Origin: Escherichia phage FL12
Strand: one strand, 5' to 3'
Sequence record: PP400786
DNA: 64,000 bases
The position numbers were made by a program, and so were the translations under genes. Positions 3,015 through 11,798 of the stretch are shown here, piece by piece. The notes beneath the pieces are model-generated. The model did no database searches, was not told the DNA's origin, and saw nothing but the letters and a program-made list of their open reading frames with translations. Within the stretch, counting starts at the first letter, position 1; each line of letters opens with the position of its first letter.

Positions 3015-3516
3015 TTAAAAGTATTTTTTAAAACTCATCATAACTTTATCATCAACATCATTATCAATCTGTGCAACAAGGTAAGATGACAGTTCTACTT
3101 CTTGTGGCGCGGATTGAACATTATCAGAATTAAGATATTCACGAATCCAAGGATACGGATGTTTAACCGGAGCATCGGTAATTGGGCATGGAAGACCACA
3201 CTGTTTCATACGAGATACAGTTAAGTAATCAATAAAGCTCCACATGCTATTTGTATTTAATCCAGGAACATCACCATCTTTAAATAAATGAACTGCCCAA
3301 TCTTTTTCTTGGCGGTTAACTTCCATGAAAATATCAACTGCTTCTTGTTCACACTCTTGAGCAATTTTAACCCATTCATCACCATCAGTGCCGGATTGAA
3401 GTTGACGAATAATATATTGAGTGCCTTTAAGATGAAGCTGCTCATCACGAGCAATGAACTTCATAATCTTGGCATTACCTTCCATGATTTCCATGTTCTT
3501 ATGGAAGTTAAAGGTA
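3015..3516 (-). CDS. nrdB: ribonucleotide reductase beta subunit, exon 2
   Basis: ...TFNFHKNMEIMEGNAKIMKFIARDEQLHL... is the conserved R2 region that follows ...FYVSFAC; splice acceptor inferred. Confidence 0.7.
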
Positions 3517-4107
3517 CCGTTATGTTCGATTGAGCTCGCTAATTCTCAACCCGTTCTCTTATGAACTGCTACATATTACTATGCAGACCAGACTATATCA
3601 CAATCCCAGAGGGATTCTCCCCATTTCGAGTCGCTTGACCCTACGTCCGAAGACTAGTCGTTGAACCTTGCTTTGCAATTGTCGCCGTGCCATCGTTTAT
3701 ATGTTGATGGTGATAAATCTTTCTTATCACAATATGGACAATTCAATTGAATTCTATTTGGATTTAATTTACATCTGTCATTATGTTTTAGATAAAATCC
3801 AGGACCTTTACCAATGTGCCCGCAGAAATCACATGTGATTTCTTTTTGTGCAGGATGGGTCCCGTTCTTAACCATTTCTAATGTTTTTGCTGATGTTCTT
3901 TTCTTATGGTCCCATCAGAATCTTTAAGTAGGTCCGTCAGCATCTATCCAAATTTTTCTATAGTTCAATTGTGCATCCTCTTAAAAGTATAATCATATTA
4001 TACTAATTAAAGGTGCAAGCAAAACCTTGGCTGCTAGTTTTCCTATAAAGGACTTTCCAGCAATTAAAGGAGTTTTCGATAAACGTTACCGTTTAAAGGC
4101 GCATTTT
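3517..4107 (-). mobile_element. group I intron in nrdB (about 591 nt)
   Basis: Exon 1 frame stops right after ...FYVSFA; exon 2 resumes about 590 nt downstream; inferred junction GCGU|GUACC gives ...VSFACTFNF...; intron ends in G. Confidence 0.6.
3654..3875 (-). CDS. degenerate intron endonuclease ORF (I-TevIII-like, zinc finger)
   Basis: 73-aa ORF inside the intron with CDFCGH...CPYCDKK zinc-finger motifs; too short for a full HNH enzyme. Confidence 0.5.
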   Translation of the reverse strand: MVKNGTHPAQKEITCDFCGHIGKGPGFYLKHNDRCKLNPNRIQLNCPYCDKKDLSPSTYKRWHGDNCKARFND

Positions 4108-4783
4108 ACGCAAAAGATACATAAAAACGAATAGCTTCTAAGGCATTAATAACGTGCAAACAGAGGTAAAGAGATTTCATTAAAGCACGTTTAGCTTCGG
4201 CTTCTTGTTTAATAGCTCGGTTTAAACGAAAGTCGGCATCAGGAGATTCTTTAGCTAGTTCTACAAATTCTTTAGCATTTTCCCATTCACGGGTTTTAAC
4301 CAAGACATCATCATAATAACGTCCAATGGATTCAGCTCGTTTCATAATAGCTTCATCTAATACAATCTCATCAAATACCTTTGACGGATCAGTATAAAGA
4401 TTTCGCATGATATGAGTATATGAACGACTGTGAATAGTTTCACTAAAAGTCCATGTAGCAACCCATGTATCTAATGAAGGATCTGAAAGCAATGGCATAA
4501 GTACCGCAGATGGTGCACGACCTTGAATGCTATCAAGTAACGATTGATATTTAAGATTATTAGTAAAAATATTTTGTTGATACTGAGGAAGTTTATTAAA
4601 TTGAGTAGCATCCATCATCAAGTTAACTTCTTCAGGACGCCAGAAAAACGAGAGCTGACGTTCAATAAGTTCTTCAAATACCCTATGTCGTTGAATATCA
4701 TAACGTGCAATTCCAAGACCAGACCCAAAAAACATGGGTTCTGTTAAAACATCGACCTGTTTAGTATTAAAAACTGTACTCAT
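4108..4783 (-). CDS. nrdB: ribonucleotide reductase beta subunit, exon 1
   Basis: MSTVFNTKQVDVL... ending ...ALEAIRFYVSFA, the conserved R2 radical-site region. Confidence 0.8.
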
Positions 4784-6375
4784 TATTTTGTCCTGTAAAC
4801 TAAATTTCCACAGTCCCAGATTCTTCTAAGACCATTTGCATAACAATTTTCTACTTCAGTTATTGTATCATCATAATTTTTAAGCTTGTTTTTAAGCTTA
4901 TGTTTCATATAGCTTGAGCGGTGAAATACCTCTCCTTTATCGACGTACCAATAACACGGCTCAGAGATATGACTAAATTCCATGACAGAGTCATAAACAT
5001 TTGATAATGTACTGCACCATCTTCGATTGCCATAAGATAGACAATTAATTCCTTTTAATAATTTTGAGACTCCTCCTACAACACAAACCCCCAATTTTGA
5101 ACACATCCTTAAAAGTTCATCACCTGAGCTATATCTAGATTTACCGATAGAAATAATTTGAACTAACTCATTATTGTAATAAAGTCCTTTATACGTATGA
5201 GCTCCCGAGCAAAATCCTTGAAGATGATTCTTATTAATAAATTCTTTTGCCTCATCCTTATTAACAAAACGCGCTTTGCATTTTCGGGCTGGTATTCTTT
5301 CTGATAATCCTAATTTATGCTTTATAATGGATTTCCAGATCTCTCTTTTTGTATCATCAATCCATTCATTTTCGAAGATGTGAAGTAATTGAATTCCTTG
5401 TGCTTCACACATCTCTGTCTTCATCAAATGATAAGTTTCTTTAATTTTATCTGTTTCCTTTGACCCGCTAGAATGCCAATAAATTCCATCGTATTCTATA
5501 GCCAATTTTTTCTCAGGAATGTAAATATCTAATTCATACGGAGGAATAATTTTTCTAGTTTCTACGCAATCAAATCCTAGATCTAAAATGAATTGCTCTA
5601 TAGAACTTTGAGTATAATGAACGTCAATTAGTCCTTTGGATGAAAGAGCTCTATAAGCCGTCATCCGAGAACAATTTGCTAATTGTTGTAGTTCTTCTAT
5701 AGAAATTTTGTAATTGATTTTATCTAGTATATCATGATTAATATGACCGTTATTTTTAATAGATTTTCCTATAGATGAATATAACGATGCCTTATATTCT
5801 TCAGTCCAATTTAATTTGGTCTTCTTAGATTTTTCGCGAGATTTTTTAGAATGCAGAATATCAACTGATTTACCGTTTTCTATAACTTTTCTCGCTTCTT
5901 TCACACTTTCTAATTGTGAATTATGCGTTACCCCATATCGTTCAATTAAAGTTTTTCTATTTTTATTTCTTGAAATTTTTTGATGAGTTGTTCCATATTT
6001 TTCTAAAGAATTTTTGTGTTGAAGTTCAGACAAATATTTTTTATATTTTTCTTTTCCACCAAAATTTGTATCACGGCTTTGAGTTCTCTTATCCGCGAAA
6101 AATATCCCTGCGCAGGATTTACTACATGTTGCTGGAAATACACGTTTCTTTGCTGTTTTCAGAGAAATGAAATTTCCACAAACTGCACATTTTAGATCGT
6201 TAATGTCAATGCCTTCCATAATTTGGAACACATTGAGCTTAAAATCTATTCCATCAGTTAGAAGAGCTTTATCTTCTTCTGTTAGTCTAGATTTAAGTTT
6301 TTCTTCTCCAAATGGAAGAAACTTTCCGTTTTTGTATATATTATCAAACATAGCGTTATTCTTAGTTAACCACAT
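4783..6375 (-). CDS. large nuclease-like protein of unknown type (zinc ribbon, basic repeats, Vsr/DUF559-like motif)
   Basis: 530-aa ORF between nrdA and nrdB; CAVCGNF...CSKSCAG; repeated KYGTTHQ / RYGVTHNSQ; ...LAIEYDGIYWHS...GIQLLHIFENEW. Confidence 0.55.
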   Translation of the reverse strand: MWLTKNNAMFDNIYKNGKFLPFGEEKLKSRLTEEDKALLTDGIDFKLNVFQIMEGIDINDLKCAVCGNFISLKTAKKRVFPATCSKSCAGIFFADKRTQSRDTNFGGKEKYKKYLSELQHKNSLEKYGTTHQKISRNKNRKTLIERYGVTHNSQLESVKEARKVIENGKSVDILHSKKSREKSKKTKLNWTEEYKASLYSSIGKSIKNNGHINHDILDKINYKISIEELQQLANCSRMTAYRALSSKGLIDVHYTQSSIEQFILDLGFDCVETRKIIPPYELDIYIPEKKLAIEYDGIYWHSSGSKETDKIKETYHLMKTEMCEAQGIQLLHIFENEWIDDTKREIWKSIIKHKLGLSERIPARKCKARFVNKDEAKEFINKNHLQGFCSGAHTYKGLYYNNELVQIISIGKSRYSSGDELLRMCSKLGVCVVGGVSKLLKGINCLSYGNRRWCSTLSNVYDSVMEFSHISEPCYWYVDKGEVFHRSSYMKHKLKNKLKNYDDTITEVENCYANGLRRIWDCGNLVYRTK

Positions 6376-6391
6376 CCTTGTGGTAATTATA

Positions 6392-7381
6392 TCATAATTT
6401 ACAGGATGAACAATCTTCAGCTTTTGGAGTTTCTATTTCATAATCATCAGTACCAGAACCATCACGGGTATTATGATAATAGAAATTTTTAATGCCATAA
6501 TACCATCCGTATAGCATGTCATCAATCATTATTGACATTGGAACCTTTCCTTTTGGAAAAATCTGCGGGTCATAATATGTATTCGCTGAAGCTGATTGAC
6601 ATACCCATTTCAGCATAATAGCTACCTGCGTAAGATAAGGTTTATTACCTTTCTTAGCTAATTTCCATGTATAGTCGTAAAGGTCTATGTTATGCTCAAT
6701 ATTGGGCACGACTTGATTAAAGGAGCCCTCTTTTGATTCTTTAACAGAGACTGGTCCACGTGGAGGCTCGATACCGTTTGTACTGTTAGAAACTTGGGAA
6801 GATGACTCACATGGCATAAGTGCTGATAATGTGCTATTACGGATGCCAAAGAGCTTAAGGTCTTCCCGCAGCGCCGACCAATCACAAACGTATTTTGGAG
6901 CTGCGATTTGGTCAATCTTTTTATTGTACCAGTCGATAGGTAATTCGCCTCGAGACCAACGAGTGTCTGAATAATATTCGCAAGGTCCTTTTTCTTTGGC
7001 GAGCTTAATGGATGCTTTAATGAGTCCATACTGTAATCTCTCAAATAGTTCATGTGTTAAATCGTTAGCATCTTCATAAGAAGCAAAGTTACTTGCCAGC
7101 CAAGCTGCATAGTTGGTAACACCTACACCAAGATTTCGACGCTTTTTAGCTTTTTCTGCTTCAGGAACTGGATATCCTTGGTAATCCAAAAGATTATCAA
7201 GAGCACGAACTTGAACTTCTGCCAATTCATTAATTTTATCTTGGTCTTGCCAGTCAAAATTATCCAGTACGAATGCGCTAAGGGTACAAAGCCCCACTTC
7301 TCCCTTGTTTTCAATAACTTCTATTGTAGTATACTCATCATCTTCGTAAAATTCATCTACAAATTCATAATCAATATTCAT
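6392..7381 (-). CDS. nrdA: ribonucleotide reductase alpha subunit, C-terminal fragment
   Basis: ...GLCTLSAF...LSALMPCESSSQ...NTRDGSG...CSSCKL, matching the C-terminal third of class Ia R1. Confidence 0.85.
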   Translation of the reverse strand: MNIDYEFVDEFYEDDEYTTIEVIENKGEVGLCTLSAFVLDNFDWQDQDKINELAEVQVRALDNLLDYQGYPVPEAEKAKKRRNLGVGVTNYAAWLASNFASYEDANDLTHELFERLQYGLIKASIKLAKEKGPCEYYSDTRWSRGELPIDWYNKKIDQIAAPKYVCDWSALREDLKLFGIRNSTLSALMPCESSSQVSNSTNGIEPPRGPVSVKESKEGSFNQVVPNIEHNIDLYDYTWKLAKKGNKPYLTQVAIMLKWVCQSASANTYYDPQIFPKGKVPMSIMIDDMLYGWYYGIKNFYYHNTRDGSGTDDYEIETPKAEDCSSCKL

Positions 7382-8081
7382 TTAATTCTTTTACCTTTTT
7401 TCTAGTAATTCCTAAAGCTTTAGATGCTCGATGTATTGATTGATATTCTATACCGTTTATTTTTACAGCAATTAAGTTATGGGGTTTTAATCCCTTTGGA
7501 TGAGGTTTACTGACGAAAACTAAATTATCAAGCTCTGAAATCTTATCCAATTTCTTACACTTAAATCCTTTGTGATGCGACCGTTTACCTTTACAAACGG
7601 CTGACATTGCAGATGGATTTAAATTATGCTCTTTACAAAATTCGTTAAGACCTCGATGAATTTCCTCATGACCATCAGGAAATGTAAACACCCAAGATGT
7701 TTGAAGTCGAGATTTAACTTCTGGAGACATAGGAATACCTTTGTTCCAAGCTGGTTTGCCTTTATTATTTTCAGATACAGAAATAGCCAATTTTCTTCTA
7801 AGCCACCCATGGCGTTTATTGGTGTTCTTTCGTTCAATATTATCTTTAGAATAAACACACATCATATTAGCGGCAAATATCAATTTATGATTATTTGGAT
7901 ATATCTTTACTAATAATTGATGAGCTATGTAATGCTCTTCTGGCGTCAAATCTACCAGGTTTTCCTTTGTATCAGAACCACCAATACACAGAGGTATAAT
8001 ATGGTGTGATTCGGTATAGCAATCTAATTTTCTATTCTTAGCTTTAGAAATAAGGTTATTGTAAATTTTAAAATAATCCAT
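7371..8081 (-). CDS. HNH homing endonuclease inserted within nrdA
   Basis: 236-aa ORF with ESHHIIPLCIGGSDTKENLVDLTPEEHYIAH motif; stop overlaps the start region of the downstream nrdA fragment. Confidence 0.8.
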   Translation of the reverse strand: MDYFKIYNNLISKAKNRKLDCYTESHHIIPLCIGGSDTKENLVDLTPEEHYIAHQLLVKIYPNNHKLIFAANMMCVYSKDNIERKNTNKRHGWLRRKLAISVSENNKGKPAWNKGIPMSPEVKSRLQTSWVFTFPDGHEEIHRGLNEFCKEHNLNPSAMSAVCKGKRSHHKGFKCKKLDKISELDNLVFVSKPHPKGLKPHNLIAVKINGIEYQSIHRASKALGITRKKVKELNEY

Positions 8082-8126
8082 AACTTTTCCTCTTGTTATG
8101 GATTATTTATTAACGGTCTGTGTACT

Positions 8127-9560
8127 TTATTTGCTTTGAATTATACCGTCAGGATTAGCTTCATAAAACTTAGCTACATCCGACTTCTTAATTTTGATTA
8201 AACGGGTTTGTTGGCTATTCACATCATTTGTTGGAATAGCAATTTCACAACACAAGTTACTCTGACGAATAGGCGCCTTTTCGCGAATAAACGGAGTGTA
8301 GTTATTCGTATTATCAATGAACTGTACATAAATCCTTGCTGTTCCTGAACGTTCAGTCATGAGCAATTCAAATAGTTCACGGGCTTTAATACGCTTTTTA
8401 CGAATATTAGGGTCTTTTTCTGCTGCTTCGTATAATTCACGGAAACGGTCTTGGTCTTTAAAATAAGAATAATAAAGCTCGCCACCCATTTCATGTGGAC
8501 TGAACAAAGTAATGTAATCGTTCTTTCCAAAACGTTCCATCATCAAATCATTCAGCTGAACACCATAATCCATATGACGAATGCGGTTTTCTTCTACGCC
8601 TTTGTTATTTTTCAAAACGAGAAGATTTTCAACTTCCAAATGCCAAATAGGATAATAAGCAGTAGCAGCGCCGCCACGAATTCCACCCTGTGAACATGAT
8701 TTAACTGCAGTCTGAAAATGTTTCCAAAAAGGAATAACACCAGTATGGCGTACTTCACCCATGCCAATCTTAGAACCTTCGGCACGAATCATACCAACGT
8801 TAATACCAATTCCAGCGCGTTTAGAGATATATTCAACAATTGAAGCGGAAGCCTTATTGATAGACTTCAATGAATCTCCTGCCTCAATAACAACACATGA
8901 ACTAAACTGTCGAGTAGGAGTACGACAACCAGCCATAATAGGAGTTGGCAGTGAAATTTGTCGGGTTGATACTGCTTCATAAAAACGAATAACGTGTTTT
9001 AGTCTATCAACAGGTTCATCTTGATGCAGTGCCATTCCAATAGTCATAAATGCAAACTGTGGAGTTTCATAAATTTGACCAGTGGTTTTATCTTTAACTA
9101 GATATTTTTCTTTTAATTGCATCGCCCCGGAATAAGTAAATTCCATATCCCGCTCATGCTTAATTTTTGATTCTAAAAATGTAATTTCTTCTGCTGAATA
9201 TTTTGACAATAATTCAGGGTCGTATTTACCTTCATTTACACAGTAAGAAATATGGTCAATAAATGAACGTGGTTCATACTGCCCATAAACATGCTTACGA
9301 AGAGCGAACATTAGACAACGTGCAGCTACATATTGATAATCAGGCTCTTCAACCGAAATAGAATTCGCAGCGGCCTTAATGACAATAGTCTGAATATCAT
9401 CAGTTGTCATTCCATCACGGAGATAAGATTTAATATTTTCATATAATTCATAAGGATCTACTGATGTTCCTTCAGCTGCCCAAGATAAAACTTTAATAAT
9501 TTTTTGTGGGTCAAAGCTCTGAGAAACACCACTACTTTTGATAACATTAATTAATTGCAT
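8127..9560 (-). CDS. nrdA: ribonucleotide reductase alpha subunit, N-terminal fragment
   Basis: ATP-cone N-terminus; ...MAGCRTPTRQFSSCVVIE... and ...SNLCCEIAIPTNDVN then 26 non-conserved residues and stop. Confidence 0.85.
   Translation of the reverse strand: MQLINVIKSSGVSQSFDPQKIIKVLSWAAEGTSVDPYELYENIKSYLRDGMTTDDIQTIVIKAAANSISVEEPDYQYVAARCLMFALRKHVYGQYEPRSFIDHISYCVNEGKYDPELLSKYSAEEITFLESKIKHERDMEFTYSGAMQLKEKYLVKDKTTGQIYETPQFAFMTIGMALHQDEPVDRLKHVIRFYEAVSTRQISLPTPIMAGCRTPTRQFSSCVVIEAGDSLKSINKASASIVEYISKRAGIGINVGMIRAEGSKIGMGEVRHTGVIPFWKHFQTAVKSCSQGGIRGGAATAYYPIWHLEVENLLVLKNNKGVEENRIRHMDYGVQLNDLMMERFGKNDYITLFSPHEMGGELYYSYFKDQDRFRELYEAAEKDPNIRKKRIKARELFELLMTERSGTARIYVQFIDNTNNYTPFIREKAPIRQSNLCCEIAIPTNDVNSQQTRLIKIKKSDVAKFYEANPDGIIQSK

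Positions 9561-10114: not shown

Positions 10115-11798
<1,684 letters not shown>

Follow-up and report, generated by a model that had tools for sequence, protein, structure and literature searches.

A decayed I-TevIII gene in the probable nrdB group I intron of the T4-like Escherichia phage FL12

The nrdB gene of Escherichia phage FL12, which encodes the small subunit of class Ia ribonucleotide reductase (RNR), is interrupted by an insert of 590 nucleotides (nt). We consider it very probable that this insert (positions 3518-4107) is the T-even nrdB group I intron, of subgroup IA2, holding a dead gene for the homing endonuclease I-TevIII, and that it persists by splicing harmlessly and probably with the help of the adjacent endonuclease gene hef. 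The DNA analyzed is a 64,000-nt stretch from sequence record PP400786, hereafter the window; coordinates are window positions, and nrdB, hef, nrdA and td all lie on its minus strand. An initial annotation of this DNA had proposed a group I intron in nrdB with a defunct I-TevIII-type endonuclease, and both parts of the proposal hold: the insert has a homologue in T4, uses the splice sites of T4 and RB3 and is missing from intron-less alleles, and its ORF (open reading frame) corresponds to residues 197-269 of RB3 I-TevIII without the HNH domain.

Results

An interrupted nrdB gene in a T4-like phage

The window belongs to a T4-like (Tequatrovirus) phage. Around nrdB, the minus strand carries rnlA, denA, nrdB, an ORF of 530 amino acids (aa) and nrdA, an order that matches T4 and its relatives. 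The 1769 nt that contain the interrupted gene (3015-4783) are matched over at least 80% of their length by 119 phage records, with a top identity of 97% in Tequatroviruses such as Salmonella phage Lv5cm and Escherichia phages F26 and FL23. Several of the top-matching records annotate a "defective intron-associated endonuclease" between two pieces of nrdB. Given these 119 records, a T4 intron at 96% identity and a match to the Rfam group I model, the interruption of nrdB is not a chance feature.

A single splice rule restores NrdB

The first nrdB ORF (4783..4106) terminates in ...RFYVSFA followed directly by a TAA stop (4106-4108), and the conserved continuation of NrdB (...TFNFHKNMEIMEGNAKIM...) lies downstream in another frame, up to the stop at 3015. 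The ORF list and the sequence agree here with what the initial annotation had read. Exon 1 (4108..4783, 676 nt) comprises codons 1-225 and the first base of codon 226 and ends in ...UUUGCGU, an end shared by the window, T4, RB3 and Lv5cm in the alignment. Exon 2 (3015..3517, 503 nt including the stop) starts with GUACCUUUAAC. Between them, the intron (3518..4107) starts with AAAAUGCGCC and ends in ...CAUAACG, its terminal G being position 3518. The splice boundaries are GCGU|AAAAUGCG...AACG|GUACC, so that the T at 4108 is joined to the G at 3517 (GCGT|GTACC), restoring ...FYVSFACTFNF... in a stop-free NrdB of 392 aa. The join that had been proposed, with an exon ending in U (4108) and an intron ending in G (3518), is the one recovered here; the proposed extent of 3517..4107, or about 591 nt, was rightly close to the 598 nt of the T4 intron but is one base too long.

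The same rule, with exon 1 ending in ...TTTGCGT and exon 2 starting with GTACCTTTAAC, was applied to the window, T4, Lv5cm and RB3. It yields inserts of 590, 598, 595 and 1091 nt and spliced proteins of 392, 388, 392 and 392 aa respectively, all free of internal stops. For T4 the outcome is exactly the annotated 598-nt intron and 388-aa NrdB, and fits the span of the annotated two-piece coding sequence (CDS).

Alleles that lack the insert offer a separate view of the junction. We fused the 200 nt at the end of exon 1 to the 200 nt with which exon 2 opens; as a 400-nt query, this sequence aligns unbroken, at 96-98% identity, to RB32, RB33, LZ2, HP3 and others. In RB32 the junction reads TATCTTTTGCAT|GTACCTTTAACT with nothing between (TTTGCAT|GTACC), and in N2 nrdB is contiguous over 1179 nt. 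At the level of sequence, these intron-less alleles confirm the predicted splice junction. The spliced protein is 97.2% identical to the NrdB of RB3 and 91.9% identical to that of T4, and it matches Pfam PF00268 with 127 bits (cut-off 33.6) over residues 33-335, in one stretch across the junction; it thus passes the family model of the class Ia RNR small subunit above threshold.

In many relatives' records (e.g. FL23, FL18, ESh36) nrdB is annotated as two separate CDS, and many place short "hypothetical proteins", encoded on the opposite strand, in the intron. Such annotation is an artefact of gene callers that take no account of group I introns.

The insert can be drawn as a group IA2 intron

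The insert shares about 96% of its nucleotides with the nrdB intron of T4; for the nrdB introns of T4, RB3 and FL23 taken together, the identity is 96-99%. Apart from 6 nt deleted from the P6a loop, its ribozyme core is that of RB3, and the intron of RB3 is functional as well as mobile (PMC1865063). An Rfam scan of the whole window at gathering thresholds returned no match. In a permissive scan the group I model RF00028 matched at 3569-3809 on the minus strand (34 bits, E = 1e-6), and the alignment correctly places J6/7-P7, P3', P8, J8/7 and P9.

We assigned the helices of a group IA2 intron by hand: P1, P2, P3, P4, P5, P6, P6a, P7, P7.1, P7.2, P8, P9, P9.1 and P9.2. P1 (4099..4111) pairs the exon sequence GCGU (4111-4108) with the guide GCGC (4102-4099) across the loop AAAAU, with a U.G wobble at the splice site; in this manual assignment all four pairs form, without variation, in 8/8 alleles. 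The 5' half of the core (4014..4095) comprises P2 (4080-4095), the 5' strand of P3 (4067-4072), P4/P5 (4031-4063) and the 5' strands of P6/P6a (4014-4030). It is followed by the P6a loop with the decayed I-TevIII gene (3678..4013), which we delimited by alignment with RB3, T4, PD112, CJY920 and SP21535; this loop is missing almost entirely from the nrdB introns of 300-309 nt that naturally have no ORF. The 3' half (3518..3677) starts with P6a'/P6' (3666-3677) and P7 (3655-3659 with 3591-3595), contains P7.1 (3645-3654), P7.2 (3628-3641), P3' (3617-3622) and P8 (3603-3615), and closes with P9 (3569-3586), P9.1 (3553-3566), P9.2 (3528-3551) and the terminal G at 3518.

The hallmark of subgroup IA2 is a pair of additional hairpins, P7.1 and P7.2, located between P7 and P3'. 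Both are found here, P7.1 as GUC-UUCG-GAC and P7.2 as GGGUC-AAGC-GACUC. The P3-P8 core, with its P3/P7 pseudoknot and the J6/7, J8/7 and P7 elements, can be drawn in full and is 100% paired in 8 alleles. For unconstrained minimum free energy (MFE) folding we removed the ORF-containing loop, imitating the natural 304-nt intron of PD112. This recovered 11 of the 14 helices (P2, P3, P4, P5, P6, P7.1, P7.2, P8, P9, P9.1 and P9.2; z = -2.5 against shuffles). P7 was missed because it forms a pseudoknot, and P1 and P6a appeared in a different register.

Comparison of alleles agrees with the drawing. Over 8 distinct alleles, 99.8% of the cells of the hand-drawn P1-P9.2 helices are paired, against 33-42% in controls with slid partners. 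Compensatory double changes occur in four pairs, all in peripheral helices (P2 twice, P5 once and, from A-U to G-C, P9 once), and in none of the slid controls. The comparison with group IA2 suggested by the initial annotation could be carried through from P1 to P9.2, with compensatory changes in P2, P5 and P9.

At the end of exon 1, intron-bearing alleles read GCG-U (4108-4111 in the window), the G pairing with the guide in P1, while the intron-less RB32 has GCA-U instead (~497-500 of its stretch), which is synonymous. Such a difference beside the insertion site is in keeping with co-conversion or with selection for pairing in P1. The 3' 150 nt of the intron resemble group I introns of Staphylococcus, Bacillus, Yersinia and other phages, and a scan of IMG/VR with a 34-nt invariant core motif matched no contig.

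Splicing of the T4 nrdB element is documented (PMC2790892, PMC2988022), and it is described as guanosine-dependent self-splicing in the account of Gott 1986 cited in PMC2790892. With a core identical to that of RB3, the intron of the window would be expected to splice in this way, the chemistry being taken over by homology from the experimentally characterized T4 intron. In the nrdB transcript, the intron RNA would fold into P1-P9.2; free guanosine would attack after the last U of exon 1, held by the U.G pair in P1; the released exon 1 would then attack after the terminal G of the intron. In the resulting mRNA, the joined exons would encode a normal small subunit of class Ia RNR, 392 aa long.

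In the same window, td (thymidylate synthase, 10115-10975) is uninterrupted and encodes 286 aa, and a search for a group I signal near it found none. T4, RB3 and Lv5cm carry a td intron with I-TevI. Intron content thus varies gene by gene among close relatives.

The intron holds the remains of I-TevIII

The intron formerly housed the gene of the HNH homing endonuclease I-TevIII in its P6a loop. What is left to read is one ORF of 73 aa (3654..3875), the only sizeable ORF on the sense strand of the intron, with two CxxC pairs, as the initial annotation had reported. It is the C-terminal two-zinc-finger part of I-TevIII: the protein is 100% identical to residues 197-269 of RB3 I-TevIII and matches positions 197-269 of the 269 of PHROG 12324, as well as PHROG 27406. 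The first zinc finger (from 3833) reads CDFC-x12-H-x3-C and the second (from 3740) CPYC-x13-H-x3-C, in keeping with the tandem CX2CX12-13HX3C motif defined for I-TevIII by Robbins et al. (PMC1865063). No Pfam HNH match was found in this ORF, and the DNA for the HNH motif (...EIHHKDGNRENNDLDNLMCLSIQEHYDIH..., in the N-terminal ~50 residues of I-TevIII) is deleted. In the work of Robbins et al., residues 194-269 form a protease-stable core that binds two zinc ions and dimerizes, but construct 194C does not bind the homing site, and the minimal binding construct begins at residue 166 (PMC1865063). Of the ~269 aa of the enzyme, the ORF retains only residues 197-269 and so lacks the minimal DNA-binding region.

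Four lesions separate this allele from the intact gene of RB3. At 3991..4003, 6 nt present in RB3 and T4 are missing (GUAUAA|UAUG), which removes the TATAAATA motif. On the basis of established T4 knowledge, we take this to be a late-promoter-type motif upstream of the endonuclease gene. The remnant of the native start (3924..3968) consists of TTG and 13 codons (LNYRKIWIDADGPT) followed by TAA, the native frame being closed after 14 codons by the loss of 2 nt (TA) together with a C>T change. At 3903..3916 lies the junction of a deletion of ~500 nt (GAUGG|GACCAUAAG), located at a GAAGAAC/GAAGACC repeat as in T4, by which the HNH motif and the linker were lost. The same junction has lost a further AA, a change unique to the window among the alleles compared. 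In addition, no Shine-Dalgarno-like sequence precedes the ATG at 3875, and the last eight codons of the 73-aa ORF overlap P6a', P6', J6/7 and P7.

With the late-promoter motif, the native frame, the HNH motif and the linker all lost, the endonuclease is dead, and the gene in the window is a dead remnant of the I-TevIII family, not a working member of it. Having lost ~500 nt that include the HNH motif and the region contained in the 166C construct, the remnant can neither cleave nor bind the homing site, and the intron therefore cannot home by itself. The initial annotation had called the ORF too short for an active HNH enzyme; inactive it is, but the damage goes beyond length, to a deleted HNH domain and linker, a closed frame and a missing promoter motif.

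A decay series among close relatives

The window allele is one step in a series of sizes. Introns with an intact I-TevIII gene measure 1091/1093 nt (RB3, NP4), and that of U5, in which I-TevIII is frameshifted, 1083 nt. Introns of 587-599 nt are found in T4, Manna, Lv5cm, FL23, FL18, ESh36, LH2, G8, F26, AV114 and the window, and SG1 has one of 420 nt. SP21535, PD112 and CJY920 carry ORF-less introns of 300, 304 and 309 nt, and RB32 and N2 have an intron-less nrdB. From 1091 to 0 nt, the sizes form the series of invasion, decay and loss that a homing element would be expected to leave. The deletion junction of AV114 differs from the others, so at least two of the large deletions were independent.

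hef and the persistence of an immobile intron

Directly upstream of nrdB, between it and nrdA, lies hef (4783..6375), a free-standing homing endonuclease gene. In DNA, its ORF shares 99.6% identity with the hef annotated in phage U5 (AY262133), the phage in which this endonuclease was first described, and its product matches the PHROG 3339 homing endonuclease with E = 2e-150; its sole Pfam match is weak and below cut-off (PF18741, a restriction-endonuclease-like domain). This is the ORF that the initial annotation had described as large and nuclease-like. In the phage collection hef occurs in 16 records only, at least 99% identical in all of them, whereas the flanking nrdB differs by 3-6%, a signature of a recently spreading element. 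Several alleles of the intron size series adjoin this near-clonal hef.

The product of hef cleaves nrdB (review PMC2988022). In T4, I-TevIII was inactivated by an internal deletion according to Eddy & Gold 1991 as cited in PMC2790892, and the nrdB intron nevertheless has high-frequency inheritance because nicking of nrdB by the neighboring free-standing MobE leads to co-conversion of the intron (PMC2790892). We propose that the intron persists in FL12 in a comparable manner: splicing would render the insertion harmless, and the adjacent hef, which targets nrdB, would probably also drag the intron into intron-less phages by co-conversion. By analogy, hef would here probably take the role of T4 mobE as helper of an immobile intron.

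Among the hef-carrying phages sampled, the nrdB intron is frameshifted at 1083 nt (U5), of 587-599 nt, of 420 nt, ORF-less at 300-309 nt, or missing (N2), and none has an intact I-TevIII. This pattern fits relaxed selection on the intron's own endonuclease where a neighbor cuts.

A second endonuclease gene splits nrdA

The nrdA region (6392-9560) is itself split, at ...NDVNS | ...EVGLC..., into an N-terminal part of 477 aa (8127-9560) and a C-terminal part of 329 aa (6392-7381) that flank an HNH gene of 236 aa (7371-8081). The HNH gene comes with a ribosome-binding site of its own and ends in a stop codon that overlaps the ATG with which the second nrdA piece starts. No Rfam signal was found at this insertion even at E <= 10. 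A second group I intron was therefore rejected as a reading of the nrdA insertion, on the missing Rfam signal, the ribosome-binding site of the HNH gene and the overlap of stop and ATG.

Compared with MobE of Aeromonas phage Aeh1, in which nrdA is split at the same position, the HNH protein shows 46% identity across its whole length. The tails of the nrdA pieces can also be aligned with those of Aeh1 (LIKIKKSDVAKF with LFKVKKSEVDKF, and EFYEDDEYTTIEV with EVYEDEEYTTVEI), and they are opposite in charge, with a basic C-tail (isoelectric point, pI, 9.7) and an acidic N-tail (pI 4.05). In Aeh1 these tails are essential for RNR assembly and had no database matches (Crona et al. 2011, PMC3045599). 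We found the split-nrdA arrangement in ~32 phage records (Tequatrovirus), and no description of it outside Aeh1 was found in the literature searched. This suggests that mobE and the tails form one mobile "genes-in-pieces" cassette and are not a one-off accident of Aeh1. With the intron remnant, hef and this mobE-type HNH gene, there are indeed three endonuclease-type elements around the RNR genes, as the initial annotation had counted.

Discussion

Several observations weigh against the interpretation of the insert as an nrdB group I intron maintained by splicing and by hef. The score of 34 bits for RF00028 is below the gathering score of 50; the low score, and the misplacement of the 5' half inside the ORF-bearing loop, are likely due to the 336-nt loop insert. 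The core helices P3, P4, P6, P7 and P8 are invariant among the alleles compared, so covariation speaks neither for nor against them and their support is homology. Phage N2 carries hef yet no nrdB intron, and the linkage between hef and the intron is thus not obligatory. Finally, a contribution of hef to the inheritance of the intron is drawn purely by analogy with another phage.

Other readings of the same DNA have to be considered. The 73-aa zinc-finger ORF might still be made and have a function of its own, either as a regulator or as a dimer that poisons or titrates the full-length I-TevIII of a co-infecting phage. Its protein is 100% identical to RB3 residues 197-269 with a single, synonymous nucleotide difference, and the corresponding fragment 194-269 is a protease-stable, zinc-binding dimer (Robbins et al., PMC1865063), both of which would suit such a role; comparison of alleles over the 222-nt segment counts ~7 synonymous against 3 non-synonymous changes (binomial P ~0.004 against the neutral expectation). 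However, most of the substitutions, notably those of AV114, may predate the deletions, and without AV114 the ratio is 3:2, with no power. The selection test is uninformative because the AV114 changes may predate that allele's own deletion. ESh36 lost 12 nt inside the segment, SG1 keeps only part of it, and three intron-bearing phages have none. The window has neither the TATAAATA motif nor the native start, its ATG at 3875 has no Shine-Dalgarno-like sequence, and the 194C fragment does not bind the homing site (PMC1865063). Over the last ~25 nt of the ORF, constraint would come from RNA pairing and not from coding. We therefore consider a surviving function of the ORF unlikely, and it is very doubtful that the remnant was kept by selection, for example as a dominant-negative that blocks cleavage by a competing phage's I-TevIII. 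If it were so, the "defunct" ORF would be an anti-homing device.

It is far less probable still that the insert is no longer spliced, nrdB being either a pseudogene (with the host RNR used in its place) or a source of two separate polypeptides. Exon 2 does have an in-frame ATG (ORF 3015-3494), relatives are annotated with two nrdB CDS, and the neighboring nrdA is split without an intron. A dead intron is at odds with a ribozyme core that matches RB3 base for base apart from the loop deletion and with two intact exons whose joined protein is 97% identical to RB3 NrdB. Two polypeptides would lose ...CTFNFHKN... and would have neither a ribosome-binding site nor interaction tails, and splicing is documented for the 96%-identical T4 element (PMC2790892, PMC2988022). 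We are almost certain that the interruption is not removed as an intein or by translational bypassing or frameshifting. A precedent for bypassing is T4 gene 60. For the intein there is the frequency of inteins in RNR genes (PMC3653736). But exon 1 runs directly into a TAA stop at 4106-4108, the length of the insert (590 nt) is not divisible by three, what is inserted is an RNA element built around a group I core, and the intron ORF showed no intein-like domain. Intein, bypass and a genes-in-pieces split of nrdB were accordingly rejected, on the exon 1 stop, the length of the insert, its group I core and the lack of tails and of a ribosome-binding site. The T-even group I intron with a dead I-TevIII is the reading that we retain.

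An nrdB intron with a decayed I-TevIII gene is an already known and ordinary feature. The nrdB intron of T4, with its deleted I-TevIII, has been on record since 1986-1991, and trans-mobilisation since 2009; the T4 group I intron with defective I-TevIII is reportedly the subject of Sjoberg 1986, Gott 1986 and Eddy & Gold 1991, as cited in PMC2790892. The present case does illustrate that a split gene and its intron can be recognized from sequence alone by a reader without tools. What it adds is modest: the extra decay of the window allele, which has lost a promoter motif and suffered two further 2-nt deletions, and a size series within one phage genus that illustrates the invasion-decay-loss cycle of homing endonuclease genes. 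The split of nrdA is a by-product more noteworthy than the nrdB intron.

Among known systems, the T4 td intron with I-TevI shares with the intron of FL12 its IA2 subgroup, an endonuclease ORF looped out of the core and a location in a gene of nucleotide metabolism (PMC2988022). It differs in the gene concerned, which is uninterrupted in the window, and in the GIY-YIG type of its enzyme. The trans homing described for T4 mobE (Wilson & Edgell 2009, PMC2790892) likewise involves an immobile nrdB intron within ~0.7 kb of a free-standing endonuclease gene whose product targets nrdB. In the window, however, the position of T4 mobE between nrdA and nrdB is occupied by hef, and a mobE-type gene lies inside nrdA instead.

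Closer still are the nrdB introns of other T4-like phages. Those of PD112, CJY920, SP21535 and SG1 are the same intron at the same site with the same core, but are further decayed, while the window retains the zinc-finger segment. RB3 has the same core except for the 6-nt loop deletion, a 100% match to the ORF remnant and an NrdB 97.2% identical to that of FL12; its intron, however, is 1091 nt long, encodes an active dimeric HNH enzyme and is mobile (PMC1865063), whereas that of the window is ~500 nt shorter. The T4 nrdB intron (598 nt against 590 nt) shares the gene, the insertion site, the splice junctions, the helices and 96% of its nucleotides, and in its defective I-TevIII the zinc-finger tail is likewise retained and the large deletion has the same junction, at the GAAGAAC/GAAGACC repeat. 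Where the core of the window departs from that of T4 (P5 loop, P6a, P8 loop, P9 and 3' tail), it has the RB3 allele and the helix pairs are kept. Beyond the decay seen in T4, the window lacks three short stretches, namely 6 nt with TATAAATA, the 2 nt TA in codon 13-14 of the native frame and, at the large deletion junction, the 2 nt AA; as a result its longest ORF starting with ATG has 73 aa, against 97 aa in T4.

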